Source: Gemmatimonadota bacterium (lineage in GTDB: Bacteria; Gemmatimonadota; Gemmatimonadetes; Longimicrobiales; RSA9). Taken from it: 61,017 nucleotides of DNA. The stretch spans positions 228-61,244 of the forward strand of contig JBBDWZ010000286.1 of NCBI GenBank assembly GCA_040902615.1. Reading direction: 5' to 3'. Below, piece after piece: positions 12,869 to 54,142 of the stretch (position 1 is the stretch's first letter; every line of letters starts with the position of its first letter). The notes beneath the pieces were generated by a model. The model worked only from the letters and a program-made list of their open reading frames with translations. It searched no databases and was not told the origin of the DNA. A program made the position numbers and the translations under genes.

Positions 12869-15319
12869 ATGATACTCGGGACATCCTGGCTCGACTGGAC
12901 GCTCGGCGGGCGAATGCTCGTGAAGTACCCGGGCCTATCCGTAATCGGTGGGCTCACGCTCGCGGTGGCGATCGGACTCGGCGCCGGCTGGTTCGAGGTG
13001 ACGCGGCAGCTCACAAACCCGCGAATTCCACTGGCTGAGGGCGATCGCATCGTCCGCATCGACAACCGGGATGCGGCGGAATCCAGGGTGGAGTCGCGCT
13101 CACTGTACGACTTCCAGCTTTGGCGCGAGCAGCTCACCGCCATAAAGGAACTTGGCGTGTACCGCTCGCTCGAGCGGAACCTGATCACGCCTGACGGCAG
13201 CGCGCTTCCCGCAACGCTCGCGGAGATCAGCCCATCCGCCTTTCCGTTGACCCGCGCACCGCCGTTGCTGGGTCGCACACTCATCGAGGCGGATGCCCAG
13301 CCGGGAGCGGCTGATGTCGCGGTGATTGGATACGACATCTGGCAGACCCGGTTCGACAGTGATCCCGGCGTCATCGGTAGCACGGTCAGGATCGGCCGCA
13401 CGCCGGTGACCATCGTCGGTGTCATGCCGGAGGGGTTTCGCTTTCCGGTCAGTCATCAGCTATGGGTGCCACTGCGCGTGACCAGCGCGGCGCCGCGCGA
13501 AGGTTTAGCGATTAGCGTCTTCGGCCGACTCACCGATGGAGCTACGCTCGAGTCTGCGCAGACCGAGCTGACCACGATCGGGCAGCGCATCGCGGCAATG
13601 AATCCAACGACACATGCACAGCTCAGACCGCGCGTCGCATTGTATGCTGCGGCCAGCGGCGATGAGACCACCCTTGCACGCCTGTCCAATCTCATCGGCT
13701 GGTTGATCCTCGCCGCCGCTTGTGCCAACGTCGCCACGCTCCTGTTCGCGCGCACCGCTACTCGTGAGGCAGAGATCGTCGTGCGCAACGCACTCGGTGC
13801 TTCACGCGCTCGCGTCATGATGCAGCTGTTTGTCGAGGCATTCGTTCTGTGTGCGGCAGCCGCGATTGTCGGACTTACAGCGGCGAGCTTCGGGCTCGAC
13901 TTTGCCAATCAGCTGCTGGCCAAGCAAAACGGGATGCCCTTCTGGTTGCAGTTCAGTGTGGGCCCGATGACGGTCGCGTATGCAGCCGTCCTTGCATTCG
14001 GCGGTGCTGTCCTGGTCGGCTTGCTGCCCGCTTTACGGGCAACCGGCCCGCGTGTGCAGAATGCTCTTGCGACCATGGCGAGCGGCAAGACGAGCATTCA
14101 GTTCGGTGGCGTGTGGTCTACGCTGATTGTGCTGCAGGTCGCTTCCGCAGCGTTGTGTCTACCCATGGCCGTGTTTGCCGCGATCTGGACCCTGCATGAC
14201 GAATCAGCCCGACCCGGTTTTCCCACCCATGAATACCTGACATTCAGACCGGAGCTGGATCGTGACGCAACGCTCGCCGCGACCGGTGAATTGCGCGCCG
14301 CGGATTCTCGAGCACAGCTGTTGAACGTGTACAATGCGGTGAAACGTGGCCTGGAGGCCGAACCAATCGTGGCTGCGGTCACCTTCGCCGACGGACTGCC
14401 GGGCGCGTATTACCCATTGCGTATGGTGGAAGCACAGCGCGGCAGCGCTACGCCGTTCCTGGTTGATTCAAACATCGAAGGAGGCAGAGTCAGAACAGCG
14501 TCGGTCGACCCAGGCTACTTCGATTCGTTCCGACTCCCGCTGGTTGCCGGGCGCGCGTTTCACGCCGGTGATGTCGACGCGGGGACTATCGCCATCATCA
14601 ACGAGTCGCTCGCTCGCAACATCGGCGCTAACCCGCTGGGCGTGCGCCTACGCTACACTGCGCGCAATGCCAACGAGCAAAACAGCCCGTGGTACGAGGT
14701 AGTCGGGGTCGTGCGGGACGGCGATATGGAACCGCGGGGCGCGGACTTTGCCTTTTTGCCTGCGTCGGTGGCCAACGTGTCTCCGCTATTCGTCTCCGTT
14801 CAGGTGAGAGGCGACGCGGGCGCCTTCGCGCCACGGCTGCGCACGCTCGTGACGCAGGTCGAGCCCGGACTTCGGCTGTACGATCTGCTGCCGTTGGACG
14901 AAGTGCTGCGGCGCCGGAAACTGCCCGAGATCCAGGGCATGTTCGCCACCATCGCGATCACGCTTCTGATCATGGCGCTGTCTGCCGCCGGATTGTATTC
15001 GCTCATGTCCGTAGCCGTGGCGCGCCGCACGCGCGAAATCGGCATCCGCCTCGCCATCGGAGCGAGCCCGCGAGCCGTGCTCCGTGCACTCTTCGCGCGC
15101 GCGGCCATGCAGGTGGGCATCGGCATCGTCCTGGCCAATGTGCTCTTTCCGCCGCTGATGAAGGCAATCGGCCTCAGCGAATTCCCGGCCTATTTCGTGG
15201 TGATTTCGACACTCGTGGCGTCCGGTGGGATGATGCTGGTAGGACTGGTCGCGTGCGGCGTGCCGGCGCGCAGGGCGCTCCGCATCCAGCCAACCGAAGC
15301 GGTGAAATATGCGGGATGA
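12869..15319 (+). CDS. ABC transporter permease, MacB/FtsX-type duplicated 'ADOP' family (paralog 1)
   Basis: N-terminal TM (KYPGLSVIGGLTLAVAIGLG), large periplasmic MacB-like domains, and two FtsX modules ending in TREIGIRLAIGASPRAV...ACGVPARRALRIQPTEAVKYAG. The ATG at 12869 matches the starts of the paralogs. Confidence 0.9.
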   Translation: MILGTSWLDWTLGGRMLVKYPGLSVIGGLTLAVAIGLGAGWFEVTRQLTNPRIPLAEGDRIVRIDNRDAAESRVESRSLYDFQLWREQLTAIKELGVYRSLERNLITPDGSALPATLAEISPSAFPLTRAPPLLGRTLIEADAQPGAADVAVIGYDIWQTRFDSDPGVIGSTVRIGRTPVTIVGVMPEGFRFPVSHQLWVPLRVTSAAPREGLAISVFGRLTDGATLESAQTELTTIGQRIAAMNPTTHAQLRPRVALYAAASGDETTLARLSNLIGWLILAAACANVATLLFARTATREAEIVVRNALGASRARVMMQLFVEAFVLCAAAAIVGLTAASFGLDFANQLLAKQNGMPFWLQFSVGPMTVAYAAVLAFGGAVLVGLLPALRATGPRVQNALATMASGKTSIQFGGVWSTLIVLQVASAALCLPMAVFAAIWTLHDESARPGFPTHEYLTFRPELDRDATLAATGELRAADSRAQLLNVYNAVKRGLEAEPIVAAVTFADGLPGAYYPLRMVEAQRGSATPFLVDSNIEGGRVRTASVDPGYFDSFRLPLVAGRAFHAGDVDAGTIAIINESLARNIGANPLGVRLRYTARNANEQNSPWYEVVGVVRDGDMEPRGADFAFLPASVANVSPLFVSVQVRGDAGAFAPRLRTLVTQVEPGLRLYDLLPLDEVLRRRKLPEIQGMFATIAITLLIMALSAAGLYSLMSVAVARRTREIGIRLAIGASPRAVLRALFARAAMQVGIGIVLANVLFPPLMKAIGLSEFPAYFVVISTLVASGGMMLVGLVACGVPARRALRIQPTEAVKYAG

Positions 15320-15326
15320 GACCGGA

Positions 15327-17780
15327 ATGACACTCGGGATGTCCTGGCTCGACTGGAAGCTCGGCGGGCGGATGCTCGTGAAGTACCCGGGCCTTTCGGT
15401 TATCGGTGGCCTCGCACTCGCCGCGGCGATCGGACTCGGCGCCGGCTGGTTCGAGGTGACGCGCCAGCTTACCAAGCCGCGGCTGCCGCTGGCAGACGGC
15501 GACCGCATCGTCCGCATCGACAACTGGGATGCGGCGGCATCGAGGGTGGAGTCGCGCTCACTGTACGACTTCCAGCTCTGGCGCGAACAACTCACATCCA
15601 TCGATGAGTTTGGCGCGTATCGCTCGCTCGAGCGGAACCTGATCACGCCTGACGGCAGCGCGTACCCAGTGACGGTCGCGGAGATCAGCGCGTCCGCGTT
15701 TCCACTAACCCGCGTGCCACCGTTGCTGGGTCGTACACTCCTCGAGGCGGATACCGAGCCGGGAGCGACTGATGTCGTGGTGATTGGATACGACGTCTGG
15801 CAACGCCGGTTCGACGCTGATCGCGAGGTGATCGGTCGTACGGTCAGACTCGGTCGCACGCCGGCGACGATCGTCGGTGTCATGCCGGAAGGGTTTCGCT
15901 TTCCGATCAGTCATCAGCTGTGGGTGCCGTTGCGCCTGACCAGCGCGGCGCCGCGCGAAGGTTTGGGCATTAACGTTTTCGGCCGACTCACGGATGGAGC
16001 GACACTGGAGTCTGCGCAGGCCGAGCTGACCGCGATCGGACAGCGCATGGCGGCGACGAATCCGACGACGCACGCGCAACTCCGGCCGCGAGTCTCCCTG
16101 TACGCAGCGCCTGCACTTGGTGATCGACAGATCGCTGGCCTCGTGCGAGTGTCCAATATCCTGGCCTGGCTGATCCTCGCCGCCGCCTGCGCAAATGTCG
16201 CTACGCTGATGTTCGCACGGAACGCGACCCGCGAAGCGGAGATCGTCGTGCGCAACGCACTCGGCGCTGCCCGCGCGCGCGTTCTCATGCAGCTCTTTGT
16301 CGAGGCATTCGTCCTGTGCGCGGTCGCCGCACTGGTTGGCCTGATCGCTATCGATTTCGCACTGAGTTACGGGATTCGCCTTTGGCCGGATCCGAACCTC
16401 CAACTGCCGTTCTGGTGGGAGTTCAGGGTTAGACCGTCGACCGTTGTCTATGGCGCTATCCTCGCCTTCAGCGGTGCGTTGCTGGTCGGCCTGCTCCCGG
16501 CGCTCAAGGCGACCGGCCCGCGCGTGCAGCTGGCACTCACCAGCATGGCGAGCGGAAGCACCAGTATGCAGTTCGGTGGCTTGTGGTCGGTCATGATCGT
16601 GTTGCAGGTCATGTTCGCGTCGTTGTGCCTGCCCATCGCACTGGGCATCGCCTTCGACGTGCTGCGCGAGCGCCCGCCGCCTGCGTACCCCCTGCATGAA
16701 TACCTGACCTTCCGGCCCGAGCTGGATCGCGACGCTACGATCACCGCAGCAGGTGCCTTCCGCATCGAAGAGTATCGAGCGCACCTGTTGAAGGTGTATG
16801 ACGAGCTGAAGCGTCGCCTCGAAAGCGAACCATCTGTGGTTGCGGTCACCTTCGCCGATAACCTGCCGGGCATGGGTTACTTATCGAGCCAGCTGGAGGC
16901 CCAACGCGGCACCAGCGCGCCGTTCGTCGTCGCTGCGGACATCCCTGGGGATAGAGCCTGGACAGCGGATGTCGACATCGCGTTCTTCGATGCGTTCCGC
17001 ATCCCGCTCGTTGCGGGGCGCGCATTCCACGCCGGCGATGCCAATGCGGCGAATGCCGTCATCATCAACGAAACGCTCGCGCGCAACATTGGCGGCAACG
17101 CACTCGGTTCGCGTATACGATACGCGGGGCGTGACGCTGGTGAACAAGCGAATCCGTGGTACGAGGTCGTGGGCATCGTACGCAACCGCGCAATCGAGGA
17201 TGCGGACTTCATGTATGTGCCGGTGTCAGCGGCGGCTGTGTCACCGCTGGTCGTCGGCATTCACGTGCGAGGCGATGCCGCTGCGTTGGCGCCGCGGCTG
17301 CGGGCCCTCGCTACGCAGGTCGAGCCCGGACTCCGGCTGTACGACCTGGTGCCGCTGGACGAATTCGGGCGCCGCGAAGGCCTGGCCGTGACCCGCGCGA
17401 CGATCGCCATTGTCGTGATCACAATGCTGGTCATGGCGCTCTCTGCCGCAGGTCTGTATTCGCTCATGTCCGTCGCCGTGACCCGTCGCACGCGCGAGAT
17501 CGGCATCCGCCTCGCTATCGGCGCCAGTCCACGTGCGGTGCTCGCCGCGGTGTTCGCGCGCGCTGCCGTGCAGGTTGGCATCGGCATCGTGCTAGGCAAT
17601 GCGCTTCTGCCGCCGGTGATGACAGCACTCGGCCAGGCCGAGTTGACTGTCGGTGAGGTGCTGCCGCAGATGCTCGCCGCGTCCGCCGCGATGTTGCTGG
17701 TGGGACTGGTCGCGTGTGGTGTGCCCGCGCGCAGGGCGCTCCGCGTTCAGCCAACCGAAGCGGTGAAATACGCGGGCTGA
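15327..17780 (+). CDS. ABC transporter permease, ADOP family (paralog 2, tandem to paralog 1)
   Basis: Collinear and highly similar to 12869-15319 (MTLGMSWLDWKLGGRMLVKYPGLS...RALRVQPTEAVKYAG). It starts 8 nt after the previous stop. Confidence 0.9.
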   Translation: MTLGMSWLDWKLGGRMLVKYPGLSVIGGLALAAAIGLGAGWFEVTRQLTKPRLPLADGDRIVRIDNWDAAASRVESRSLYDFQLWREQLTSIDEFGAYRSLERNLITPDGSAYPVTVAEISASAFPLTRVPPLLGRTLLEADTEPGATDVVVIGYDVWQRRFDADREVIGRTVRLGRTPATIVGVMPEGFRFPISHQLWVPLRLTSAAPREGLGINVFGRLTDGATLESAQAELTAIGQRMAATNPTTHAQLRPRVSLYAAPALGDRQIAGLVRVSNILAWLILAAACANVATLMFARNATREAEIVVRNALGAARARVLMQLFVEAFVLCAVAALVGLIAIDFALSYGIRLWPDPNLQLPFWWEFRVRPSTVVYGAILAFSGALLVGLLPALKATGPRVQLALTSMASGSTSMQFGGLWSVMIVLQVMFASLCLPIALGIAFDVLRERPPPAYPLHEYLTFRPELDRDATITAAGAFRIEEYRAHLLKVYDELKRRLESEPSVVAVTFADNLPGMGYLSSQLEAQRGTSAPFVVAADIPGDRAWTADVDIAFFDAFRIPLVAGRAFHAGDANAANAVIINETLARNIGGNALGSRIRYAGRDAGEQANPWYEVVGIVRNRAIEDADFMYVPVSAAAVSPLVVGIHVRGDAAALAPRLRALATQVEPGLRLYDLVPLDEFGRREGLAVTRATIAIVVITMLVMALSAAGLYSLMSVAVTRRTREIGIRLAIGASPRAVLAAVFARAAVQVGIGIVLGNALLPPVMTALGQAELTVGEVLPQMLAASAAMLLVGLVACGVPARRALRVQPTEAVKYAG

Positions 17781-21887: not shown

Positions 21888-22991
21888 GTGCGAATAACCA
21901 GGATCATTGTACATCAGGTGGACCTGCCTCTGCACGAAGGCAGCTACAAATGGTCGGGCGGCAAAGGCGTCACCGTATTCGATAGCACGGTCGTGCTGGT
22001 CGAAACCAATGACGGTATTACCGGCGTGGGCGAGGTTTGCCCGCTTGGGCCCGTGTACCTGGCAGCCTACGCCAATGGCGTGCGGGCGGGGATCCGTGAG
22101 CTTGGGCCCAAGCTGATTGGCGAGAATCCGCTCGAGCTGATGAAGCTCAATGCGCGTATGGATGCAGTCCTGAAAGGACATCCGTACGTGAAATCCGCGA
22201 TCGACATGGCGTGCTGGGATATTCTCGGTAAAGCAACCGGACAGCCGGTCTGCACACTGTTGGGTGGGCGTTATGACGATGACTTCGTGCTGTACCGCGC
22301 CATCTCGCAGCAATCGCCACGCGAAATGGCGGAGAACGTTCTTGGGTATCGCGAGCAGGGGTACCGCCGCTTCCAGCTCAAGGTTGGTGGTGATCCCGAT
22401 GTCGATATCGAGCGCATACGCGCGGTGCGGGGAGCGCTCCAGCCGACCGATCGCCTGGTGGCCGACGCCAACACCGGCTGGACGCAGCACGAAGCCATGC
22501 GGGTCGTGCGCGCAGTGCGCGATGTCGATGTTTACATCGAGCAGCCGTGTCTTACCTACGAGGAGTGCCTCGCGATCAGGCGCCGCACCGACCATCCGTT
22601 CGTGCTGGACGAAAACATCGACAGCATCGATGTGCTGGTACGTGGCAAAGCCGATGCGGCGATGGACGTCGTGAACCTGAAGATCAGCAAGTTCGGCGGA
22701 CTCACGAAGATGCGGCAGGCGCGTGATCTGTGCGTATCCCTCGGCATCGCGATGACGGTGGAGGACAGCTGGGGTGGCGACATTGTGACCGCAGCTATCG
22801 CACACCTGGCCCACAGCACACCCACCGAGTTCCTGTTCACCAGCACTGACTTCAACAGCTATGTAACAAGGAGCATCGCCGATGGCGCTCCGCAGCGCGT
22901 CAACGGCCGGATGTCAGCTTCGACTGCACCCGGACTCGGAGTTACACCCAGGATGGATGTGCTGGGAGACGCGGTCTTCTCGATCGAGTGA
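21888..22991 (+). CDS. Enolase-superfamily enzyme (mandelate racemase / muconate lactonizing enzyme family)
   Basis: GTG at 21888 with GGGAG about 10 nt upstream. MR/MLE-type sequence: [13 protein letters not shown]..., [50 protein letters not shown]. Confidence 0.85.
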
Positions 22992-23107
22992 GGAGCGGCA
23001 GCATAACCACAGCACATGTTCGCTTCACCTGATTCGATCACTCCGCTCCGCTTCAGTCAAATCTCTGTCGAGAAATCTATGATAAAACGGTGATGTGATT
23101 GGGTTGG

Positions 23108-23278
23108 CTTGCTGCCGCTGATGAAGGCACTCGCTAGGCCGAGTTGACTGTGAGTGAGGTGCTGGTTCATGCTCGTAGCGTGGGCGCCATGTTGCTAACA
23201 GGACTTGTCGCGTCCGGCGGGTTCGGCGCAGCGGACGCTCCGCGTCCAACCGCGCCAAGCGGTGAGAACGCTGGATGA
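23108..23278 (+). pseudogene. Decayed 3'-end remnant of an ADOP permease gene
   Basis: It aligns by eye with the last ~170 nt of the intact paralogs (compare 17610-17780 and 15150-15319): ctgccgctgatgaaggcactcg...gccgagttgactgt.agtgaggtgctg...cgctccgcgtccaacc...gcggtga. The frame is broken by indels and stop codons, and there is no upstream part of the gene. Confidence 0.75.
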
Positions 23279-23343
23279 AGAGGTTTGCGTGCACTTGCCG
23301 CTTTAGCGGAGTGCCTTTTCCATGGATTGCGACGAGTTCCCGC

Positions 23344-23381
23344 TTGCGTACGAAAATGAAGTCATTATGATGTCATCATGA
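23344..23381 (+). promoter_or_regulatory. Candidate promoter and RHH operator: -35 TTGCGT, -10 TATGAT, two palindromic TCATnATGA 9-mers spaced 11 bp apart
   Basis: TTGCGT at 23344-23349, a 16-nt spacer, then TATGAT at 23366-23371. tcattatga at 23362-23370 and tcatcatga at 23373-23381; the central ATGATGTCATCAT (23367-23379) is a perfect palindrome. The RHH ATG at 23378 has no Shine-Dalgarno sequence, so the mRNA may be leaderless. Confidence 0.4.
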
Positions 23382-23590
23382 ATCGCAAGGTCAGCAACGG
23401 CCAGCCAAAGCGCCGCCCAGTGTCTGCCCGGGTGCCAGTAACCGTCCGAATCCCCGAAGAAATCATAGAGCGTATCGACCAGCACCTTGATGACCGCGAG
23501 ATACCGCTGTCCAGAAACAACTGGTTCCTAGAGGCTGCATTGGAGAAGCTGCGGCCTAGTGACGCCGGAGGATCACATGGCAAGAAGTGA
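23378..23590 (+). CDS. Ribbon-helix-helix (CopG/Arc/MetJ-type) DNA-binding protein, 70 aa
   Basis: VTVRIPEEIIERIDQHL...SRNNWFLEAALEKL fits the strand-helix-helix pattern of RHH proteins. It overlaps the next gene by 14 nt. Confidence 0.7.
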   Translation: MNRKVSNGQPKRRPVSARVPVTVRIPEEIIERIDQHLDDREIPLSRNNWFLEAALEKLRPSDAGGSHGKK

Positions 23591-24623
23591 TCTTCTAGTG
23601 TCGCTCGTAAAAGCCGGAACGGCCGGCGATAGGCGTAGCTTTCGGAGTGCGATCGAAGCGATCATTGCTGAGGAGCGCGCCAAGCATCACAACGTTCTTG
23701 CCGACACCCTGACGAGAATCATTCAAACAAACGGATCGGCTCCGCCTCACGGCCCCGTTGCGATGGCATCCGTGCATGGCGATTCGTCGCCTCGGGGCAG
23801 GGAATTCGTGGCGGAGATTGTGCCGCGGCGACGCCTTGATGACCTGATCTTACCGGCGGTTGTACGCCGAGCGGTCGACCAGTTGGTCGAAGAGCAACAG
23901 CGCGCCGACCTCCTCCGCGCACATGGGCTTGAGCCGCGGCACCGCATCCTGATCGTCGGGCCGCCGGGAACGGGGAAGACTACTCTTGCCGAGGCCATTG
24001 CCGAAAGCGCGGGCGTGCCGCTATTTGTCGTGCGCTACGAAGCGATGATCGGTAGCTATCTCGGAGAGACGGCGACGCGCCTTAAGCGTGTGTTCGACTA
24101 CGCGCGCACAACGCCATGCGTTCTATTCTTTGATGAATTCGATGCAATCGGCAAAGAGCGCGGCGACATTCACGAGACGGGCGAGATTAAGCGCGTAGTC
24201 ACATCCCTGCTGATGCAGGTCGATGACCTGCCAAGCTACACGATCATCGCGGCAGCAACGAATCATCCCGAGCTACTGGACAGAGCCTCATGGCGGCGCT
24301 TTCAGATCCGGGTTTCGTTGCCGCTTCCCGATTCACGGGCACTTATCCATTACATTCAAAGATTGACCGAATTGCACCGTGAGCCTCTCGGCCACGCGCC
24401 TGCCGCAATTGCGAAGCGCCTGGGCAGGATTAGCTACGCAGAGGCCGAGCAGTTTTGTCTCGATATCCAAAGGCGCAGCGTACTGTCAATCGGCCAGAAG
24501 CCGGTGAAAGCGATTATCTCCGAGCAGTTAGAGGTTTGGGATGCGCGCGCCCGCGCAGGAAAAGCTGGCAAGGGAGGCATGATAGATGGCGGAACGCCCT
24601 CTACTGATCCTTCCAACCGCTGA
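23577..24623 (+). CDS. Classical-clade AAA+ ATPase (IetA-like), 348 aa
   Basis: GGAGGA lies 4 nt upstream of the ATG at 23577. Walker A GPPGTGKT (23958-23981), Walker B VLFFDEFDAIG, sensor-1 IIAAATN, second region of homology LLDRASWRRF. No signal peptide or TM segment. Confidence 0.9.
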   Translation: MARSDLLVSLVKAGTAGDRRSFRSAIEAIIAEERAKHHNVLADTLTRIIQTNGSAPPHGPVAMASVHGDSSPRGREFVAEIVPRRRLDDLILPAVVRRAVDQLVEEQQRADLLRAHGLEPRHRILIVGPPGTGKTTLAEAIAESAGVPLFVVRYEAMIGSYLGETATRLKRVFDYARTTPCVLFFDEFDAIGKERGDIHETGEIKRVVTSLLMQVDDLPSYTIIAAATNHPELLDRASWRRFQIRVSLPLPDSRALIHYIQRLTELHREPLGHAPAAIAKRLGRISYAEAEQFCLDIQRRSVLSIGQKPVKAIISEQLEVWDARARAGKAGKGGMIDGGTPSTDPSNR

Positions 24624-27180
24624 GACGATCGGTCCGCCGCCGTTGCATGGCGGAGGCTCCAAGCCAATTGTACCGCCGCGCGCAACCCAAGCAAATCGCA
24701 TCGCGCCGTCCCTCGCGAGGCTGAAAGAGGCGCTCAACCGCGGGCCTGAGCATGTCCTCGAACTGCGCGACGATCCCACCGCACTCGCGCCGGACCGCGT
24801 TATCGTCTTCGAGATCGCCGGCTCCGTTGCGGACTTCGCGCGCGCGGCGTCACGCGTACCTGGTCTCGAGCTCATGGTCGAGTATGAGACGGAGAATCCG
24901 CCGGACGATTTTTTTGCCGAGAAGGACACGCGCAAAGGCCGCGAAGGCGAACGCCGCGACGACAAGCTCGTCGACGGACGCCTCTATCTCGCGATGCCTG
25001 ACATCACCGCGCTCGGCGAATTCATCCGCCTTTGGGATCGTTGGGTGGCAGGGCGGGAGTTCGACCAAGGTTTCGCTCCCTTCAAGCATCTCTTCGCGCA
25101 ATTGCGTGAGGTGCGGCCTTGGGGTCCACGGGACCGCATCCCGGAAGAAACGATTGCCTACTGGCAGCAAGAAGCGCGTGACAATCCCGATCGGCCAGTA
25201 AGAACCGAAGTTGAGCTTTGGTTCCGGCGTACAGCTGAGCGCCGCGAACAAGCTTCCCGCGACTTCCGGACAATCGTCGCGGGGGCCGGTGGTGCAATGA
25301 TTCACGAAGCCATGATTCCGGAAATCGCCTATCACGGCGCGCTGATCGACATTCCCGCAGCGGCAATTCCGGGGCTTGTCGCCCGCCAAAACGTTGCCCT
25401 GGCCCTTGCCGACGATGTGATGTTCTTGCGGCCGCAGACCGTTCTGGCCGCATTGCCCGGGTCGGCCGATTCTGATGATGGTCCGCCTTCACAGGATCAG
25501 CCTCCAGCCGTAGGTCAGCCAATTGTGGCGCTGCTAGACGGCGTGCCGCTCCAGGGACATGAACGGTTAGCGGGGAGGCTGGCGCTCGATGACCCTGACG
25601 ATCTGCAAGCTCGTGCGCTTGTAAACCGCCGCTTCCATGGCACTGCCATGGCCTCGTTGATTCTTCACGGCGACCTAAATGCACCTGAGGCTCCGCTTGC
25701 CCGACCGGTCTATGTGCGACCATTGATGATTGCGCCGGCAGATCTCAGCGAGCACACCCCCGGAGATCGGCTGCTTGTCGACACACTCTACAACGCCATC
25801 CTCCGCATCAAGGGTACACCAACGCAGACGGGGGTGGCGCCGAATGTGTTTCTTGTAAATCTATCCCTCGGTGACAGCCGGCGGCCGTTCGCGAATCTAG
25901 TCAGTCCGCTGGCACGTCTCATCGACTATCTCGCGGCCAAAGACAACATTTTGTTCCTTGTCAGTGCCGGCAACATCAGCGAGCAGTTAATGCTGCCGGA
26001 TTTCAACCAGTGGGGCGATTTCGAGGCGGCGACTCCCGAAGCGCGGGAACGCGCCGTGCTGATGGCTATGTTCACCGCTAAGCATGAACGGTCGCTCCTT
26101 TCGCCGGCTGAGGCGGTCAACGCACTGACAATCGGCGCGCAGCATGCCGATAATGTTGCGAACCGCGTCGGCACCAATATGACGGTGGACCCATTTGACG
26201 ATTCGACGTTACCCAATGCGAGCTGCGCGTTAGGCCTTGGATACCGACGGGCGGTCAAGCCTGATCTGTTTCTGCCAGGCGGACGAGAGCATGTGCGAAT
26301 GGCCGCTGGCGGTGGGGGCGTACGCCTGAGATTCGGGCCGCCGCAGCGCTTATTTGGCCTCGGTGCGGCGGCCCCTGATTCGGCAAACATGGGGCGCTTA
26401 AACCAGACTTCATACGCGGACGGGACGAGCGCTGCAACCGCGCTCGCGACTCGTGCGGCGCACAGGATCTTCGATTCAATGATGGACCGGGATGGCGGCT
26501 CCTTACTCGCCGATGTTCCGCCGGACTATTACGCTGTTGTCATCAAATGCCTTCTCGTTCACAGCGCTCGCTGGAACGAGAAAGGAGAGTTCATCAAGGA
26601 ACTTTGCGGTCCGTCCGATCCGAGGCAGCACGTCGAACGCGCCGCGAACGCAACGCGTTTTCTCGGGTTCGGTGTTCCAGACATCTCGCACATGCTTGAT
26701 TGCGCAGAGAACCAAGCGACCCTTGTCGGTTTCGGCACACTGCAACCCGATAACGCACACAATTATCGGATTCCACTGCCGCCCTCGCTTGAGGGCGTCA
26801 CCGATCCACGTCAACTCGCCATCACAGTAGCGTGGTTCACGCCTGTGCGGGCTGGCCATCAGAGCTATCGCACGGTCAAGCTCGTCGCTGCGCCCGACCA
26901 ACCGAAGGAAGCTGTCGGTGTCGTGCGGTTCAGCGACCAGCCTGCAAGTCCTTCTGTAAGGAAAGGCACCGTATTCCACGAAAGGTACTTCGGCCAATGG
27001 GCTGTACCGTTCATCGACGACGGTCACCTCTCCGTGCGGGTCTTGTGCAAGGACGACGCAGGCAACAACGGGAATGCGGTTCGTTACGCTATCGCCGTGA
27101 CCATAGAAGTGGGGACGCCTTTGCGCATCTACGAGGAAGTCAGCGAGCGGCTGCGGGTGCGGCCAAGGGCTCCGGCATGA
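24586..27180 (+). CDS. Cytoplasmic S8-family subtilase-like serine protease (IetS-like), 864 aa, with unassigned N- and C-terminal regions
   Basis: The S8 catalytic residues occur in the correct order: D318 in VALLDGV (25537-25539), H351 in FHGTAMAS (25636-25638), N463 in VSAGN (25972-25974), S615 in ADGTSAATA (26428-26430). No signal peptide. It overlaps the ATPase gene by 38 nt. Confidence 0.9.
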   Translation: MAERPLLILPTAETIGPPPLHGGGSKPIVPPRATQANRIAPSLARLKEALNRGPEHVLELRDDPTALAPDRVIVFEIAGSVADFARAASRVPGLELMVEYETENPPDDFFAEKDTRKGREGERRDDKLVDGRLYLAMPDITALGEFIRLWDRWVAGREFDQGFAPFKHLFAQLREVRPWGPRDRIPEETIAYWQQEARDNPDRPVRTEVELWFRRTAERREQASRDFRTIVAGAGGAMIHEAMIPEIAYHGALIDIPAAAIPGLVARQNVALALADDVMFLRPQTVLAALPGSADSDDGPPSQDQPPAVGQPIVALLDGVPLQGHERLAGRLALDDPDDLQARALVNRRFHGTAMASLILHGDLNAPEAPLARPVYVRPLMIAPADLSEHTPGDRLLVDTLYNAILRIKGTPTQTGVAPNVFLVNLSLGDSRRPFANLVSPLARLIDYLAAKDNILFLVSAGNISEQLMLPDFNQWGDFEAATPEARERAVLMAMFTAKHERSLLSPAEAVNALTIGAQHADNVANRVGTNMTVDPFDDSTLPNASCALGLGYRRAVKPDLFLPGGREHVRMAAGGGGVRLRFGPPQRLFGLGAAAPDSANMGRLNQTSYADGTSAATALATRAAHRIFDSMMDRDGGSLLADVPPDYYAVVIKCLLVHSARWNEKGEFIKELCGPSDPRQHVERAANATRFLGFGVPDISHMLDCAENQATLVGFGTLQPDNAHNYRIPLPPSLEGVTDPRQLAITVAWFTPVRAGHQSYRTVKLVAAPDQPKEAVGVVRFSDQPASPSVRKGTVFHERYFGQWAVPFIDDGHLSVRVLCKDDAGNNGNAVRYAIAVTIEVGTPLRIYEEVSERLRVRPRAPA

Positions 27181-27205
27181 ACACGGCGTCTGATTTCGAG
27201 AGGGT

Positions 27206-27336
27206 TCACAACTTCTTAGGCAGCCAGTCCATCCATCGGCGCACTTCGAGCTTGCGCTTGTGCGGCAAAAGGTCGTCCGCGTGTTCGTGACCGGCGTAGC
27301 CATCCATCTCGAGATGCTCATCTTGAACTCGTAGCG
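27206..27336 (-). pseudogene. Decayed remnant of a TolB-propeller/amidohydrolase paralog: two fragments joined by an internal deletion
   Basis: The reverse complement of 27206-27268 encodes ...PHKRKLEVRRWMDWLPKKL*, compared with PEKRKLERRWWMDWLP at 46800-46860. 27273-27336 matches 47423-47480 (the DFKMSISEMLDGYAGHEHA region) with indels. The ~550 bp between the fragments and the whole 5' part are missing. Confidence 0.75.
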
Positions 27337-27355
27337 CGACGAGCGGGTACGGCGT

Positions 27356-28681
27356 TCATCTGTGATCTTGTCTGGAATCACGTCGCAAGCTGCGAATGAA
27401 CGTGTGAATCTCTCGTAACACGTCTGCCTCGTTCGACAGGAAGAGGAAGTGGGTCGCGCCTGCCACGCGTACGACACGCGCCGATGGGACGCCTTTCTCG
27501 AAAGCGTTGGCCTGAAGCGTCCGCACTGAATCCGCCGCCGCCGCCGCGGCGCGCGCCGAATCCGTCAGCTCGCCAGCCGGCAATCGTCGAGGCAATGCAT
27601 AGATCGCAAGCGCGGTCGCTGAAATCGACGTGTACTTCTGCACGCCAGCCCAGATCGCGTTCACTGCAGGCAAGTAAGCGGGCGCGGGCGGCACGGTTCT
27701 GGGCGCCTGGGTCGACTCGAGTGTCCGCTGGTATTCGCGAAGATTCCGCTCGAGCACCGGCAGTTCGGTCGTTACAAGAGAACGTACCATGGCGATCACG
27801 TTTTGAATGCTGTCCGAGCTGATTGCACTGGCCCGGATCTCGGTGAGGCGATCGAGCTTTCGGCGTACGTCGGCCAGTTCAACCGGCAGGTAACCGAGCG
27901 TCGAATCGTAGTACGCGTAGCCAAAGGCAGCGTCGAGGTAGACCAGGCCGGCCACTCGGCCCGGATGACGCGAGCCGATCGAGCTCAGCTCTTGCCCAGC
28001 AATGGAATGGCCGATCAGCACCGGCCGATCGAGACCGAGTGTGTCCAGCACCGCGATCACATCGTCCGCGAGACGATCCGCGGCATAACCGGACGCTGGC
28101 GTGCTGGAAAAGCCGAAGCCGCGACGAGTCACGCCGTATACGTGATAATCACCAGACAGTTTCGCTGCGAACTGATCGAAAACGTGCGCGGTATTGCCGA
28201 GCCCGGACAAAAGCACAACGGGCAGGCCAGTGCCGCCCCAATCAAGCACCTCGAGTTTTACGTTTCGATCGACCGTGATGAAGCGCGCGTTGTGTGGCGA
28301 AGAATCACGCCATGCCGTGCCACTCGTTGCGCGCTCGAAATCCAGTGGCGTCGCCCGCGTCTGAGTCCATGTACCGATCAGCCTTTTGTCGTCGGCGCCA
28401 AGCTTGGCTCGATAGGTGGCTCCCAGCTGAGCGAACGTGACCGTGAGGACGGAGTCTTTGAGCTGGATCGTACTTGCCGGAAAGGGCTGATCGAAACCGC
28501 CCTGGTCCAGGCTCACGAGCCACGCGTTCATTCCGCTATCGGCCTTTGCGACCCGAAGAAGGAGCCGCAGGGATCGATTACCGCGAAGCGTGGCTTGCCA
28601 ATCGCCGGTCATACCCTGAGCCCCGACTGGGCTCGGGATCAAAGCCACGAAGGCACAAAGGAGGGCAGCGCGCACGCTCAT
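27356..28681 (-). CDS. Secreted alpha/beta-fold hydrolase
   Basis: Signal peptide MSVRAALLCAFVALIPSPVGAQ and nucleophile elbow GHSIAGQ. GAGG lies upstream of the ATG. Confidence 0.85.
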   Translation of the reverse strand: MSVRAALLCAFVALIPSPVGAQGMTGDWQATLRGNRSLRLLLRVAKADSGMNAWLVSLDQGGFDQPFPASTIQLKDSVLTVTFAQLGATYRAKLGADDKRLIGTWTQTRATPLDFERATSGTAWRDSSPHNARFITVDRNVKLEVLDWGGTGLPVVLLSGLGNTAHVFDQFAAKLSGDYHVYGVTRRGFGFSSTPASGYAADRLADDVIAVLDTLGLDRPVLIGHSIAGQELSSIGSRHPGRVAGLVYLDAAFGYAYYDSTLGYLPVELADVRRKLDRLTEIRASAISSDSIQNVIAMVRSLVTTELPVLERNLREYQRTLESTQAPRTVPPAPAYLPAVNAIWAGVQKYTSISATALAIYALPRRLPAGELTDSARAAAAAADSVRTLQANAFEKGVPSARVVRVAGATHFLFLSNEADVLREIHTFIRSLRRDSRQDHR

Positions 28682-29885: not shown

Positions 29886-30352
29886 GGAGAGCCTCGGAGT
29901 TTTTTGGGTCGAGAGGAAGCAATGTACACGATCCGTCCAACACGTGCTGCCCGCCGCTTGGGCAGCCTCGCGCACCGGAAATCGCCCTCGGGCGAGACCG
30001 TTCGCAATGAAAAGCCGAGCCGCATCGTTCACGCTGCACGTTGTTGTTCCTACACGCCGACCCAAAAGGCCGCTATGAACGCAATGCAGGTGCGCCGACT
30101 GGCAGTTCTCCTGGCGATCGCTTGTGCGCCGACCATCAGCGAGCTGTCCGCGCAGTCGCCATTCGACGGATCCAAAAACCGTCCGCGTGTGGGATCGGGC
30201 GTGCCACGGGTGGCACTCGAAAGCCTTTGGCGGGGTGCGCCCGAAACGCCAATCTCTCGTCACGGCAATGACTTTTCACGGCATGTGAGGCGGCACACAC
30301 CTTCCGATTGCACTGCTTCAAAACCACCTCGCATCAACGGCGGAGCAGCGTA

Positions 30353-32827
30353 ATGAAATTCGGAGCGTCCTGGGTCGACTTCAAGCTCGGCGGGCGCATG
30401 CTCGTGAAATACCCGGGCCTGACCCTGATTGGCGGCATCACCCTCGCGGTGGCGATCGGAGTCGGGGCAGCATGGTTCGAGGTGACGCGGCAGATTGTGA
30501 ACCCGCGCATCCCGCTGGCTGACGGCGACCGCATTGTCACCATCGCCAACTGGGATGCTGCGGAATCAGAGATCGAGGCGCGCTCGCTCTACGACTTTCA
30601 GCTCTGGCGCGAGCAGCTAACGTCGATCAGGGAACTGGGCGCGTACCGCGCGTTCGAACGGAATCTGATTACGCCGGACGGCATTGCGCAGCCTACAGAA
30701 GTCGCGGAGATCAGCGCGGCTGCGTTTCCGTTGACTCGTGTGCCGCCCTTGCTGGGTCGCACACTCCAGGAGTCTGATGCCGTGCCGGGCGCTGCTGATG
30801 TCGTCGTGATCGGTTACGACATCTGGCAGAATCGTTTCAAGAGCGATCGCAGCATCATTGGTCAGACGGTCAGAGTCGGTCGCACGCCGGCGACCATCGT
30901 TGGGGTCATGCCGGAGGGGTTTCGTTTTCCGGTCATTCAGCAGCTCTGGCTGCCGTTGCGACTGTCCACGGCGGCGCCGCGGACGGGCGCCGCTGTCAGC
31001 GTCTTCGGCCGGCTCGCGGATGGCGCTTCGCTCGAGTCTGCACAAGCCGAGCTGACCACGATCGGTCAGCGCATTGCCGCCGTGAATGCGACGACGCATG
31101 CGCAGCTACGACCGTTCGTCTCGCGGTATGGCGGGCCCGGACCTATGTTCAACGGGGCGCCTGGTAGAAGCCAGTCGTTGCTGATCCGCATGACCAACAT
31201 CATCGCCTGGCTAATCCTCGCTGGTGCGGGCATGAACGTCGCCACGTTGATGTTTGCGCGCACTGCGACGCGTGAATCCGAGATCATCGTGCGCAATGCA
31301 CTCGGTGCTTCGCGCAAGCGCGTCATGATGCAGCTGCTGGTCGAGGCCTTTGTGCTGTGCACGGCTGCTGCGGTGGTTGGACTCCTCGGGGCCAGCTTCG
31401 CACTCGACTACGCCGTTCGCCTCTTCGCCGTGTCCGCGATAGAGCAGGTGCCGTTCTGGTGGCAATTCAGCATTGGGCCGGTCACTGTGCTTTACGCCCT
31501 TATCCTGGCGATCGGCGCTGCCGTTGTGGTCGGGTTGTTGCCTGCCATCAGAGCGACCGGCCCGCGCGTGCAGAACGCGCTCACGCAGATGTCGACCGGC
31601 GGCACGAGCATCAAATTCGGCGGCGTGTGGAGTGTCATGATCGTGCTGCAGGTCGCGTTTGCGGCGCTGTGCCTGCCCTTCGGTTTTGCCGCCGCGTTTG
31701 CCTCGGTGTTCGAGACCCGATGGTCTGATCGGTTCCCCACAAATGAGTACCTCACGTTTCGGCCGGAGCTGGATCCTGACGCACTCCCTACGACTGGTGT
31801 ATTCGATCCGGCCGCGTATCGCACGCAGCAGTTGACCGTATTTGCCGAGCTGAAGCGCCGACTCGAGAACGAGCCGTCGGTCACGGCCGTAACCTTTGCC
31901 AATGGCCTGCCGGGTACGTCATTTGGCCTGCGCCAGGTGGAAGTGCAACGCGGCAGCGAGCCGCCGGTCCTGGTTGATGCGAGCATCGAAGGCGACCGGG
32001 TCAGAATCGCGAATGTCGACAACGACTACTTCGACGCGTTCCAGTTCCCGTTGGTGGCCGGCCGCGCATTCAACACTTCCGATGTCGGCGCCGAGACCGC
32101 CGTCATCATCAACGAGACGCTGGCGCGCAACCTGGGCGGTAACCCGCTGGGCAAGCGGATCCGCTACGCTGAGGGTGGCCCCTATCGGCCGGTCAGTTCG
32201 TGGTACGAAGTCGTCGGTGTCGTGCGCGATATCCAGGATGCAACACCGGCCGACTTCATCTTCCAGCCCACGTCCGCCGCGGATGTGACTTCCCTCACTT
32301 TCGCGGTCCACACGCGTGGCGATGCCGCCGCAATTGCGCCGCGTCTGCGCGCCATCGCAACCGAAGTCGAGCCCGGACTCCGGCTTTACAACGTCGTTTC
32401 ACTGCACGAACTCCTGCGCCAGCGCGAACGGCCCGCGATCCAGCTGATGATCGTGACGGTCTCGCTCGTGCTCGTGGTGCTGGCACTCTCGGCCGCAGGC
32501 CTGTACTCGCTCATGTCCGTTGCAGTCACCCGTCGCACGCGCGAGATCGGCATCCGCCTCGCCATTGGCGCAAGCCCGCGCGCTGTACTCGGTGCGCTGT
32601 TCGCGCGCGCGGCCATCCAGGTAGGCATCGGCATCGTCCTGGCCAATGCGCTCCTGCCCGCGCTGATGACAGCTCTCGGCATCATGGAGTTGAAACTGAA
32701 CATAGTGCTGGGGGCGATGCTGATCGCATCGCTCGGCATGTTGCTGGTGGGACTGATCGCGTGCGGCGTTCCTGCACGGCGCGCGCTCCGAATCCAGGCA
32801 ACCGAGGCGATGCGATACGCTGGCTGA
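30353..32827 (+). CDS. ABC transporter permease, ADOP family (paralog 3)
   Basis: MKFGASWVDFKLGGRMLVKYPGLTLIGG... is collinear with paralogs 1 and 2 and ends in RALRIQATEAMRYAG. Confidence 0.9.
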   Translation: MKFGASWVDFKLGGRMLVKYPGLTLIGGITLAVAIGVGAAWFEVTRQIVNPRIPLADGDRIVTIANWDAAESEIEARSLYDFQLWREQLTSIRELGAYRAFERNLITPDGIAQPTEVAEISAAAFPLTRVPPLLGRTLQESDAVPGAADVVVIGYDIWQNRFKSDRSIIGQTVRVGRTPATIVGVMPEGFRFPVIQQLWLPLRLSTAAPRTGAAVSVFGRLADGASLESAQAELTTIGQRIAAVNATTHAQLRPFVSRYGGPGPMFNGAPGRSQSLLIRMTNIIAWLILAGAGMNVATLMFARTATRESEIIVRNALGASRKRVMMQLLVEAFVLCTAAAVVGLLGASFALDYAVRLFAVSAIEQVPFWWQFSIGPVTVLYALILAIGAAVVVGLLPAIRATGPRVQNALTQMSTGGTSIKFGGVWSVMIVLQVAFAALCLPFGFAAAFASVFETRWSDRFPTNEYLTFRPELDPDALPTTGVFDPAAYRTQQLTVFAELKRRLENEPSVTAVTFANGLPGTSFGLRQVEVQRGSEPPVLVDASIEGDRVRIANVDNDYFDAFQFPLVAGRAFNTSDVGAETAVIINETLARNLGGNPLGKRIRYAEGGPYRPVSSWYEVVGVVRDIQDATPADFIFQPTSAADVTSLTFAVHTRGDAAAIAPRLRAIATEVEPGLRLYNVVSLHELLRQRERPAIQLMIVTVSLVLVVLALSAAGLYSLMSVAVTRRTREIGIRLAIGASPRAVLGALFARAAIQVGIGIVLANALLPALMTALGIMELKLNIVLGAMLIASLGMLLVGLIACGVPARRALRIQATEAMRYAG

Positions 32828-32857: not shown

Positions 32858-35551
32858 TCAAATCGCGCGCAGTGTTTCCGTCGGGCTAACGGCGGTGGCG
32901 CGCCGGGCCGGCAACCACGCGGCGAATAGCGCCACGGCCTCGAGCAGGATCACGACGCTGAGCAAAACGAGTGGATCGCTGGCCGACGTCTCAAACAACA
33001 GCGGTTGCACCAGGGAGCCAAGTGCGAGCGCGAGCGCGAGCCCAGTCGCGATTCCAATCGAGGCAAGCAGCGTTCCCCTTCGTACTACAAGCAATGCGAT
33101 CGATCGCTCGGACGCACCGAGCGCGAGTCGCACGCCGATTTCGTGACGTCCCCAGGCGACTGCGTGCGCCATGATGCTGTAGAGCCCAAGCCCGGCAACC
33201 ACGAGGGCCAGGAACGCGCTGATGCCAAACGCCACGATGCCCAGGCGGAACGGCCGAACTTCGGCCGCCAACCCTTGCGAAAGCAGTCGCACATCGATCG
33301 AGCGAATGTCGCGGTCGGCGTTCTGCAATGCCTCGCGTAACGCCGGCCACGCTGTGGTGGGTCGACCGGTCGGGCGAACGACCAGCCAACTTCCGCTGAA
33401 TCCGCGCTCCTGGCCGATCGGCACGTAGAACTGCATCGACGGCTCCTCCTCGAGACTGTGTCGATGCACGTCTGCGGCGACACCAACAATGCGGGCGCAG
33501 CGCGCGGTGCGGTCCTGGATGCGCACGCATGCTCCCAATGCCGGGCGACCCGGCCAGAGCACGCGAGCCATGGTTTCATTGACGATAACGACCGGCTCGC
33601 TGTCCTCGCGATCGCTTGCCGTGAACGGCCGCCCTTCGCGAACGCGGGTACCCATGGTGGTGAAGTAGGCATCACCGACAGCGCTCACATACGGACCTCC
33701 GCCGGGGAGCGATGGGATCGAGTCGCGCCCAGGTACGAAAAGGCCCACACTCACACTGCCGTGGAAGGGGACACCGACTGAAATCGCCGCGCTTTCAACG
33801 CCCGGCAGCCGTCGAACGGCTTGAAGCAGTGCACGGTGACGTTGCCGTTCGATCAATCCAGTGCGCCGAATCCAATCGCTGAACGTCTCTCCCGGATCCC
33901 GAGCGATGCGCTCATATCTGGCTTCTATGGTCAACACGCGATCGGCATCGAGTCCCAGGTCCACCGCGTTAACTCGCTGCAAGCTGCGCAGGAAGAGACC
34001 CGCGCCCACCAGCAGCATCACCGAAAACATTGCCTGCACCACAGTGAGCGTCGAGCGCAACGGCGATTGCAGCGGTCCGCCGCGGTCGCCGCCGCGCAGC
34101 GCATCGTGGATCTGCGGTCGTCCGGCCTGGATCGTGGGTGCGAGCGAAACCAGAAATCCGGTCACCAGCGCGAAAACGGCAACGGCGCCCAGCACACGCA
34201 CGTCGACGATCGTAAACCGCCACGAACCGTCAGGGAAAAGCGCGCTTTGAATGACCGGCGCAACCAAAGCAGTGACAACCAGGGCCATTGCCGCAGCAGA
34301 AACCGCGAGGACCAGGCCTTCGATCGCCAGCATGCGGATCAGCCGCGTTCGACCGGAGCCCAGCGCCACGCGCACCGCCAGCTCGCGCCGCCGCCGTGCC
34401 AATCGGGCCAAAAGCAGGTTGGCCACGTTGGCGCAACTGATGAACAGGATGATTGCGGAAATAACCGCGAGCCAGCGCGCCATCACGGCCTCGAGTGACT
34501 CCTTTCCATTTTCATCGTGGCCGATCGGAGCCGCGTGGTAACTCGCACCCACCAGCCATTTGGCCCAGCTGGGCAGCTGATCCTCGACGCGTTCACGCAG
34601 CACAGACACTTCGGCCGCCGCGGTCTCGAACGAAACGTCCGGTCGCAGACGTGCGACCAGATGCATGTTCATTGAATTGCGCATGGTCGGGCTGATCGGC
34701 GTCCAGACATCGACGCGGTGCAGCTCGGGCCCGGTAAACCCGGCCGGTGCAATGCCGACGATCGCATGCGGCACGTCATCCACCGCGATCGTCTTCGCCA
34801 GGATGTCCGGATCGGCCGCGAAGCTCGTACGCCAGTAGCCCTCGCTGATCACCGCGACGGTGGCGGCATCTTCATCACGATCGAAAAATCGACCGCGCAA
34901 CGGCCGCACGCCCAGCAACGGAAACAGCTCGCTGCTTACGCGCGATACGCGCCGCATTTCACTGGCCGCGCCACGGCCGACCATGGCTTCGCCTGCGCGA
35001 TAGCCAGCCATTCCTTCGATCGTGCGCAGGCCATCGCGCAACACAATAAACGCGGAGTGCGGCAGCCACGCCGTGGTCTGCAGCCCCAGCGGCGGCTGCT
35101 CCACCCGGCTGTACAGCCGCACCAGCCGGTCAACCTCACGGACGTGTTGCGGTCCTCGCAACAACACACGGTCGGCAATGCTGAATACCGCGACGTTGAT
35201 GCCGATGCCCAGTGCCAGCGTGACCAGGATGAAGAGCGTGGTGCCCGGTTCGTGTGCGAGCCGCCGCGCCCCCAATCTCACATCCTGCCAGAACGAGTCC
35301 CACTGATCGTGCAATCGCATGTGACCATTCCGCTGTATGGCAGCCTGTTTGAGATGATCGATGGTCGTATCGGTGAGAGCGAAGAGCTGTCGTGCCTGTC
35401 TCGCGGCTTCAGCCGGCGACACCCCGTCGCGAATGAGCTGCTCGGTACGCAGGGCGACGTGTAATTCGATTTCTTCATGAAGATCCTCCGCGGCCGCGTC
35501 CCGCCTCCACGTGCCCAGGCGAAAGAGTCGCTTGATCCCCGGACGAATCAT
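32858..35551 (-). CDS. ABC transporter permease, ADOP family (PadR-linked subtype)
   Basis: The ATG at 35551 overlaps the PadR TGA (ATGA). N-terminal cytoplasmic helix MIRPGIKRLFRLGTWRRDAAAEDLHEEIELH..., then two FtsX modules, ending in RRATAVSPTETLRAI. Confidence 0.9.
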   Translation of the reverse strand: MIRPGIKRLFRLGTWRRDAAAEDLHEEIELHVALRTEQLIRDGVSPAEAARQARQLFALTDTTIDHLKQAAIQRNGHMRLHDQWDSFWQDVRLGARRLAHEPGTTLFILVTLALGIGINVAVFSIADRVLLRGPQHVREVDRLVRLYSRVEQPPLGLQTTAWLPHSAFIVLRDGLRTIEGMAGYRAGEAMVGRGAASEMRRVSRVSSELFPLLGVRPLRGRFFDRDEDAATVAVISEGYWRTSFAADPDILAKTIAVDDVPHAIVGIAPAGFTGPELHRVDVWTPISPTMRNSMNMHLVARLRPDVSFETAAAEVSVLRERVEDQLPSWAKWLVGASYHAAPIGHDENGKESLEAVMARWLAVISAIILFISCANVANLLLARLARRRRELAVRVALGSGRTRLIRMLAIEGLVLAVSAAAMALVVTALVAPVIQSALFPDGSWRFTIVDVRVLGAVAVFALVTGFLVSLAPTIQAGRPQIHDALRGGDRGGPLQSPLRSTLTVVQAMFSVMLLVGAGLFLRSLQRVNAVDLGLDADRVLTIEARYERIARDPGETFSDWIRRTGLIERQRHRALLQAVRRLPGVESAAISVGVPFHGSVSVGLFVPGRDSIPSLPGGGPYVSAVGDAYFTTMGTRVREGRPFTASDREDSEPVVIVNETMARVLWPGRPALGACVRIQDRTARCARIVGVAADVHRHSLEEEPSMQFYVPIGQERGFSGSWLVVRPTGRPTTAWPALREALQNADRDIRSIDVRLLSQGLAAEVRPFRLGIVAFGISAFLALVVAGLGLYSIMAHAVAWGRHEIGVRLALGASERSIALLVVRRGTLLASIGIATGLALALALGSLVQPLLFETSASDPLVLLSVVILLEAVALFAAWLPARRATAVSPTETLRAI

Positions 35552-51194: not shown

Positions 51195-51196
51195 CG

Positions 51197-53929: not shown

Positions 53930-54142
53930 CGCGCAGAAAGACACTGGCGCGAGGCCAAAACATTTGACGGTCGGGCTGAGAGGAACGGAAACTGCAGCGC
54001 CTTAAAACGCCTTTATCTTTTACCGATCAAGAGATCGTTTGAGCCCTAGCGGGATGATGCTATCGCAGTGGATGGGGCAGACCGGTGAAATGCCCAGGAT
54101 TGGGAATGGCAACATCGGCAACGTCAGAGAAATGCTATTGAG

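Follow-up and report, generated by a model that had tools for sequence, protein, structure and literature searches.

The 61,017-nucleotide stretch of Gemmatimonadota DNA analysed here (positions 228 to 61,244 of contig JBBDWZ010000286.1, assembly GCA_040902615.1; hereafter the window) contains, at 23341–27180, a compact cassette of three genes preceded by a short conserved element (Table 1). The genes encode, in order, a small protein resembling ribbon-helix-helix (RHH) regulators, an AAA+ ATPase of the IetA family and an S8 serine protease of the IetS family. As a first-pass annotation of the bare sequence had described, the three open reading frames (ORFs) are co-directional on the plus strand and overlap by 14 nt (small gene and IetA) and by 38 nt (IetA and IetS), and both overlaps are unchanged in the gene calls of relatives. 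The longest IetA ORF spans 23559–24623 and begins at a GTG at 23559, giving 354 aa, while the conserved start is the ATG at 23577. The 14-nt value depends on this ATG, which is supported by the match to ATPases of relatives, beginning at MARSDLL, by gene calls of 348 aa on other contigs, and by a GGAGGA Shine-Dalgarno sequence 5 nt ahead of it. A second Shine-Dalgarno sequence, GGGAGG, lies 8 nt ahead of the IetS ATG at 24586.

Table 1. Features of the cassette and of a second type of small ORF found in related loci (positions are those of the window unless another locus is named)
Feature	Position	Strand	Size and content	Proposed role or basis
Conserved promoter/operator-like element	23341–23377	+	ahead of the small gene	putative promoter and operator
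Small RHH-like gene	23378–23590	+	70 aa, basic	putative transcriptional autoregulator of the operon
IetA, classical-clade AAA+ ATPase	23577–24623	+	348 aa from ATG	putative antitoxin
IetS, cytoplasmic S8 serine protease	24586–27180	+	864 aa	putative toxin/effector
IetS N-terminal region	24586–25440	+	residues ~1–285; helical segment, then two ferredoxin-like beta-alpha-beta-beta-alpha-beta modules	predicted, AlphaFold2 model
IetS S8 catalytic core	25513–26580	+	residues ~310–665; holds D318, H351, N463 and S615	Pfam match at 337–661, motifs
IetS C-terminal all-beta domain	26698–27165	+	residues ~705–860	predicted, AlphaFold2 model
Second-type small ORF, locus L030	2715–3005 (NZ_CP115777.1 67664–67954)			
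Second-type small ORF, locus L023	4742–5017			
Second-type small ORF, locus L026	4703–5020			

The cassette is a self-contained, horizontally mobile three-gene unit. Nucleotide similarity between the window and 44 related loci covers 23342–27180 and nothing outside, and we therefore take the unit to run from the -35-like hexamer of the upstream element to the IetS stop codon. IetS is 55–79% identical to proteins of metagenome-assembled genomes (MAGs) labelled Burkholderiales, Bryobacterales, Acidobacteriota, Vicinamibacterales, Gemmatimonadales, 'delta proteobacterium', Rhodospirillales, Binatia and others, and identity of this order across such diverse labels argues for horizontal spread. The first-pass annotation had described the cassette as lower in GC than its surroundings and lying between pseudogene remnants, and had found this consistent with recent acquisition, but neither argument was borne out. 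At 0.603, the GC content is slightly below the mean of the window, 0.625 (standard deviation 0.014 among equal-sized segments, 6.5% of which are equally low); this marginal dip of -1.6 standard deviations is too weak to indicate acquisition, and a GC-based case for it was rejected. The flanks, of 350 nt and 175 nt, contain ORFs, but none of these matches a Pfam family. A search for insertion scars at the cassette found no tRNA, no Rfam match and no flanking direct or inverted repeats.

IetA matches the PADLOC IetA model PDLC04232 (E=1.6e-143, 476 bits) from residue 7 to residue 333 of the 354-residue ORF, covering profile positions 1–322 of 330, and it matches Pfam AAA (PF00004) at E=3.2e-31 and 108.9 bits against a gathering score of 21.2. 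All the motifs of the complete AAA module that had been noted earlier could be located (GPPGTGKT at 128–135, LFFDEFD at 183–189, AATN at 226–229 and RRF at 240–242); the Walker A and B motifs are intact and invariant in 24 homologues, and a pore-loop-like SYLG lies at residues 160–163. The nearest sequences of solved structure are the D2 domains of p97/VCP/Cdc48, at E about 4e-51. IetA has no recognisable DNA-binding domain.

IetS fits the PADLOC IetS model PDLC04233 (E=6.4e-290, 962 bits) along residues 1–862 and profile positions 1–850 of 855. Peptidase_S8 (PF00082) is the only Pfam family that it matches (E=1.6e-11, 44.5 bits against a cut-off of 21.8, residues 337–661), and the N- and C-terminal regions, which the first-pass annotation could place in no family, have no Pfam match. 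The four catalytic-site residues stand in the canonical D-H-(N)-S order in the contexts LLDGV (D318), HGT (H351), SAGN (N463) and GTSAA (S615), and all four are invariant across 24 homologues; at least 2129 homologues were found at E<=1e-10 among the candidates scored. A hydropathy scan detected neither an N-terminal hydrophobic signal nor a membrane segment (the highest 19-residue Kyte-Doolittle mean is 1.41), in agreement with the earlier remark that the protease lacks a signal peptide.

AlphaFold2 models suggest how the regions around the protease core may fold. The model of residues 1–300 (mean predicted local distance difference test score, pLDDT, 73.7; predicted template modelling score, pTM, 0.70) shows a long helix followed by the two modules listed in Table 1. 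Its Foldseek matches are weak (best E=5e-4, TM-scores 0.2–0.4) and fall on tandem ACT-domain regulatory proteins; they are too weak for ACT homology to be claimed, though the predicted tandem ferredoxin-like region could serve in regulation or docking. The full-length model has a mean pLDDT of 59.5 and a pTM of 0.69, with a poorly modelled catalytic core (pLDDT mostly <50), and its best Foldseek matches are to PCSK9 (E=1.3e-5, low TM-score). At the C-terminus, strands are predicted at residues 710–842 with pLDDT about 60–86, and this part has weak jelly-roll/beta-sandwich Foldseek matches. The IetS family profile matched nothing among PDB sequences at E<=0.01, and our literature search found no structural study of IetS.

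The two large genes belong to the known IetAS family, and existing tools would label them as such: the PADLOC models of IetA and IetS are matched along the whole length of the two proteins, and the genes are adjacent and co-directional, with the ATPase before the protease, as the PADLOC definition of IetAS has it. Of the profile searches proposed in the first-pass annotation, those with PF00004, PF00082 and the PADLOC models gave matches, and the genomic linkage of ATPase and protease, whose absence would have spoken against an IetAS-type module, was seen in every relative examined. The same two PADLOC models are also the best for the IetA/IetS pairs of a Rhizobium rhizogenes Ti plasmid, a Paracoccus plasmid and Aeoliella, which places the window system in the subfamily that holds the Ti-plasmid IetAS. 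The module had been described as diverged, but it is not especially so, since it falls inside the same subfamily, as defined by hidden Markov models, as the Ti-plasmid pair.

The first report of IetAS, which the first-pass annotation had not mentioned, concerned the stabilisation of pTiC58 by a toxin-antitoxin pair in which the protease is the toxin and the ATPase neutralises it (Yamamoto et al. 2009, as cited in PMC13069673 and PMC5006074). For the related SgiAT of SGI1, toxicity and its neutralisation have been shown in E. coli, and the system promotes SGI1 maintenance (PMC5006074). Anti-phage activity of IetAS was reported by Gao et al. 2020 (as cited in PMC13069673), and the IetAS of B. 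cereus m1293 responds to the expression of SPbeta YosG and protects through abortive infection (bioRxiv 10.1101/2022.08.27.505566). In the E. coli system ietHAS (Liu-DS4), a third gene encoding an SNF2 helicase has an antitoxin-like influence; the same 2026 paper describes the IetAS mechanism as still unknown and reports that protease activity is needed for defence (PMC13069673).

The Ti-plasmid example that we compared, R. rhizogenes pTi NZ_CP118250.1 (locus L031), stands in for pTiC58, which itself was not among the 60 plasmid matches listed. Like the window, it has an AAA+ ATPase gene followed by a gene for a long cytoplasmic S8 protease, with PDLC04232 and PDLC04233 as the best models, and its IetS and IetA are 37.5% and 52% identical to those of the window; unlike the window, it has no upstream RHH-like ORF, and a gap, not an overlap, lies between its ATPase and protease genes. 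SgiAT (S026-S025), compared by its description, likewise pairs an ATPase antitoxin with a subtilisin-like toxin, but there are 20 bp between its genes, its description includes no RHH gene, and activation is needed for expression from its own promoter (PMC5006074). The systems of Gao et al. 2020 and of B. cereus m1293, which NCBIfam covers by its IteA/IteS equivalogs, share the architecture of the window genes, though the window proteins match the Gao-group PADLOC models PDLC02195-02202 much more weakly. A precedent in plan is ietHAS, an IetAS operon with a recruited third gene, which is a large SNF2 helicase there and encodes a 70-aa RHH-like protein here.

In order to follow the small gene, we scanned one genome per species for IetS relatives, which gave 29 loci, 23 of them with DNA upstream of IetA. 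A homologue of the small gene lies directly upstream of IetA and overlaps its start in 17 of the 23, and protein searches found at least 50 homologues of about 70 aa, all of them unnamed. All 12 context loci carry the gene: in the eight loci of three of these homologues (P0144, P0145 and P0159) it precedes the AAA gene with an identical 14-nt overlap throughout, and the four loci of the two closest IetS relatives have the 70-aa gene upstream of the AAA gene. Altogether, about 30 related loci from several phyla have a homologue in this place. Pairwise divergence at its three codon positions is 0.29, 0.18 and 0.55, the signature of a coding sequence. Three loci (L023, L026 and L030) have a different RHH-like ORF at the same overlapping position, containing PIQVMVPExxRRQV...ENIRTVVLRGL; this second type has no Pfam match and is unannotated in the Paracoccus plasmid NZ_CP115777.1 (L030, IetS 44% identical). 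An hhalign comparison of the two types gave a probability of 16%, at which homology between them is unproven. In two MAGs (L006 and L025) there is no small gene; the gene adjoining IetA is a truncated AbiEii gene in L006 and an HsdS gene in L025. More distant IetAS systems, with IetS 32–39% identical (Rhizobium, Gordonia, Sphingobium, Bradyrhizobium, Shewanella, Marinovum, Mycolicibacterium and Klebsiella plasmids, and Aeoliella), have no such small ORF upstream, and their IetA and IetS genes do not overlap where both are annotated intact. Because it is present, replaced or absent in this pattern across loci, the small gene is best described as a clade-specific, conserved but exchangeable accessory.

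A few loci show the small gene or its position in altered form. In L001 (3373–3531) an internal deletion has removed helix 1, and in L005 (~4790–4832) and L019 (~4785–4862) a short, aborted ORF comes after the conserved promoter motif, with the RHH frame restarting about 30–60 nt downstream. In L006 (4288–5020) the truncated AbiEii gene, preceded by a DUF6088 gene, runs into the IetA start, as does the type I restriction-modification (R-M) specificity gene of L025 (3803–5020). Both of these upstream ORFs end at 5020, and immediately ahead of the IetA start the two loci resemble each other over a short stretch, so recombination may have occurred at the same point in both.

The first-pass annotation was thus right that an extra gene accompanies the two large ones and is conserved with IetAS in this clade; the profile matches behind its assignment to the RHH fold are sub-threshold, those to CopG_antitoxin and BrnA included. 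The fold is at most probable. The sequence pattern fits an RHH, running from a basic tail through RVPVTVRLP and a helix to a second helix, SRNNW..EAAIEKL. Weak support for the fold comes from the NCBIfam family YlcI_YnfO_N, which is matched at E<=0.01 by 33 of 34 members of the small-protein family. When the family profile was compared with the PDB, no RHH chain was found, only a spurious phasin match at E=0.49. PADLOC has no model for this gene, and annotation pipelines miss the third gene.

The element ahead of the small gene reads CTTGCG (-35-like), 16 nt, TATGAT (-10-like), 6 nt and the ATG, and the consensus among relatives is CTTGCG, N16, TATGAT, GTCAYY, ATG. In an alignment of 15 loci, conservation sets in sharply with CTTGCG, some 37 nt ahead of the ATG, and continues up to that codon, with a mean pairwise difference of 0.33 at -40 to -1 against 0.75 at -110 to -41. 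The window holds a single copy of the 20-mer TGANNTCAYTATGATGTCAY, at 23357–23376, against 0.02 occurrences expected, and 20 loci have it once at the identical offset. We read the element as a probable -35/-10 pair giving a leaderless transcript that would start at or beside the start codon, since the -10 box ends only 6 nt before the ATG; the small gene has no Shine-Dalgarno sequence upstream, which fits such a start. Two 8-bp palindromes, TGAAGTCA and TGATGTCA, lie 11 bp apart within the element, overlapping the -10 box as well as the start site. They form a plausible operator for an RHH dimer of dimers.

Taken together, these features make it probable, in our judgement, that 23341–27180 is a three-gene IetAS operon, an RHH-regulated toxin-antitoxin and anti-phage cassette. 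The RHH-like protein would bind the two TGAnnTCA palindromes over the -10 box and leaderless start and so repress its own promoter; it would supply the autoregulation because IetA has no DNA-binding domain of its own to do so. Translational coupling would set the ratio of the three products. IetA, to judge from its kinship with the p97/Cdc48 D2 domains, its SYLG loop and its intact arginine fingers, may be a hexameric substrate-threading AAA+ machine that restrains IetS at the cost of ATP, probably by engaging or remodelling it, with the IetS N-terminal region as a candidate docking site. A phage-encoded trigger or the loss of IetA function would then free IetS to cleave cellular proteins, and the infected cell would die or arrest in an abortive infection. 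These toxin-antitoxin and abortive-infection steps are taken from work on relatives, namely pTiC58 IetAS, SGI1 SgiAT, E. coli ietHAS and B. cereus IetAS. The order of regulator, antitoxin and toxin recalls tripartite toxin-antitoxin operons with a separate RHH repressor, such as omega-epsilon-zeta, whose antitoxin likewise lacks a DNA-binding domain and in which a small RHH protein is regarded as the repressor of the promoter, acting through repeated short sites. The likeness is in logic only: the toxin and antitoxin are unrelated, and the repressor of the window is putative.

Several observations weigh against this interpretation. The behaviour of the system is extrapolated from relatives whose IetS is about 23–38% identical, and the window proteins score far under the cut-offs of the NCBIfam anti-phage equivalogs (231.6 against 510 bits for IteA, 46.3 against 900 bits for IteS), so they are not equivalogs of the curated pair. 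Docking of IetA on the IetS N-terminal region is speculation, because the structural model of IetS is poor in the catalytic core. With regard to the regulator, Pfam RHH_1 gave the small protein 18.3 bits against a cut-off of 20.5 (E=0.0023), and 9 of 34 family members matched at E<=0.01; an hhalign comparison with CopG was in register but had a probability of 5%, the CopG query being approximate. A sigma-70 scan of 22800–27600 did not call the element, whose -35-like hexamer agrees at 3 of 6 positions, and sigma-70 and terminator counts over the same interval were at or below shuffle expectation. The conservation of the element could also reflect a promoter alone, without an operator. Finally, over about 10 kb around the cassette the window holds neither defence genes nor mobile genes.

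The genomic surroundings bear on whether the cassette defends against phages or mainly maintains itself. It could be chiefly a selfish addiction module, acting by post-segregational killing and persisting because its loss is harmful. The founding descriptions of IetAS as a plasmid-stabilising toxin-antitoxin system and of SgiAT as a factor maintaining SGI1 favour this view, as far as the citing accounts go (PMC13069673, PMC5006074), and so does the presence of homologues on 74 plasmid records, often among other toxin-antitoxin genes. The window copy, too, stands alone among ordinary genes: its neighbours encode a sortilin/BNR protein, an enolase-superfamily enzyme, two alpha/beta hydrolases and MacB-type permeases, so it is a solitary insertion and not a member of a defence island. 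Relatives in the clade sit directly beside genes for type I R-M systems, Mrr, PLD nuclease and AbiE (AbiEii), and the neighbours of relatives also include methyltransferase, integrase and transposase genes. Other IetAS systems protect by abortive infection, and the two roles are not mutually exclusive. An addiction-only role agrees with much of the evidence, but we consider it unlikely that addiction is the main function.

A different question is what the 70-aa protein does if the cassette is the RHH-regulated defence operon proposed above. A stronger version of that proposal would make the RHH-like protein an obligatory third component that sits on a leaderless promoter and sets the IetA:IetS ratio, and perhaps even a switch, labile or sensitive to phage, that frees the protease when it is lost; we put this forward only tentatively and think it doubtful. 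Less likely still is a role other than, or in addition to, that of a transcription factor, with the protein as an integral component of the system: a labile co-antitoxin, a sensor displaced by the phage trigger, or a protein that the IetA unfoldase uses as adaptor or takes as substrate. The conserved 14-nt overlap with IetA implies coupled translation and would suit such a role, the third gene of ietHAS gives antitoxin-like control (PMC13069673), and the RHH fold, and hence DNA binding, is unproven. On the other hand, a different RHH-like ORF takes the place of the small gene in L023, L026 and L030, while L006, L025 and the distant IetAS systems lack it, and an exchangeable regulator is easier to reconcile with this; the palindromes, moreover, overlap the -10 box. 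The idea that IetA and IetS form an ordinary two-component ATP-dependent housekeeping protease of the ClpXP or FtsH kind, which the classical AAA+ core, the intact pore loop, the adjoining protease gene and the metabolic and transport neighbours in the window might suggest, is scarcely credible given membership of the IetA/IetS families, a patchy cross-phylum distribution at 55–80% identity, variable flanks with homology stopping exactly at the cassette borders, and relatives tied to defence genes and to insertion sequences, some of which disrupt IetS.

What is new here is modest: a variant of IetAS in which an RHH-like gene and a sharply conserved putative promoter/operator are held together with the two known genes through one large environmental clade. 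Our literature search found no description of a conserved three-gene RHH-like form of IetAS and no paper joining IetAS with ribbon-helix-helix. The clade crosses phyla and is always seen to travel as a 3.84-kb unit with its own small putative regulator gene and conserved promoter/operator-like element, and this is the minimal native unit to clone; we predict that constructs without the small gene would be misregulated or toxic. The small protein and the upstream element also offer a simple, testable DNA-protein interaction. If the protein did prove to be an obligatory component, RHH-IetA-IetS would count as a genuinely tripartite defence system of the toxin-antitoxin kind, and the trigger mechanism of IetAS would become easier to approach. 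The understanding of IetAS itself is unchanged, and the variant is useful for mechanism work while being unsurprising in principle.

Among the relatives, several copies are broken. In L016 (8148–9420) and L021 (4197–6001) IetS is split by insertions encoding DDE transposases (DUF772/DDE_Tnp_1 and DDE_Tnp_1_4, respectively), in L008 IetS residues 31–197 are missing, and frame breaks occur in IetA of L007 and IetS of L019, although the latter two could stem from misassembly. That copies are disrupted repeatedly, and mostly in the protease gene, is consistent with a toxic or costly product. In L035 (6001–9728; ENA ERZ25068966 ctg565402) the RHH homologue and IetA are followed by a gene for a 777-aa DUF2339 membrane protein in place of IetS. 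An exchange of effector was rejected in favour of a deletion or rearrangement, as IetA matches only to residue 334 before unrelated sequence begins, and no remnant of IetS is present.

Elsewhere in the window, the stretch at 54001–57000 has the lowest GC content, 0.56–0.57 against 0.62, and the ORFs at 54143–55390 and 55406–56251 have no PADLOC match and no significant Pfam match; this may be another acquired segment. The window also carries five paralogous MacB_PCD and FtsX permease genes of about 820–950 aa, at 12821–15319, 15309–17780, 30308–32827, 32858–35704 and 51056–53911. Expansions of MacB_PCD/FtsX permeases are typical of Acidobacteriota and Gemmatimonadota.

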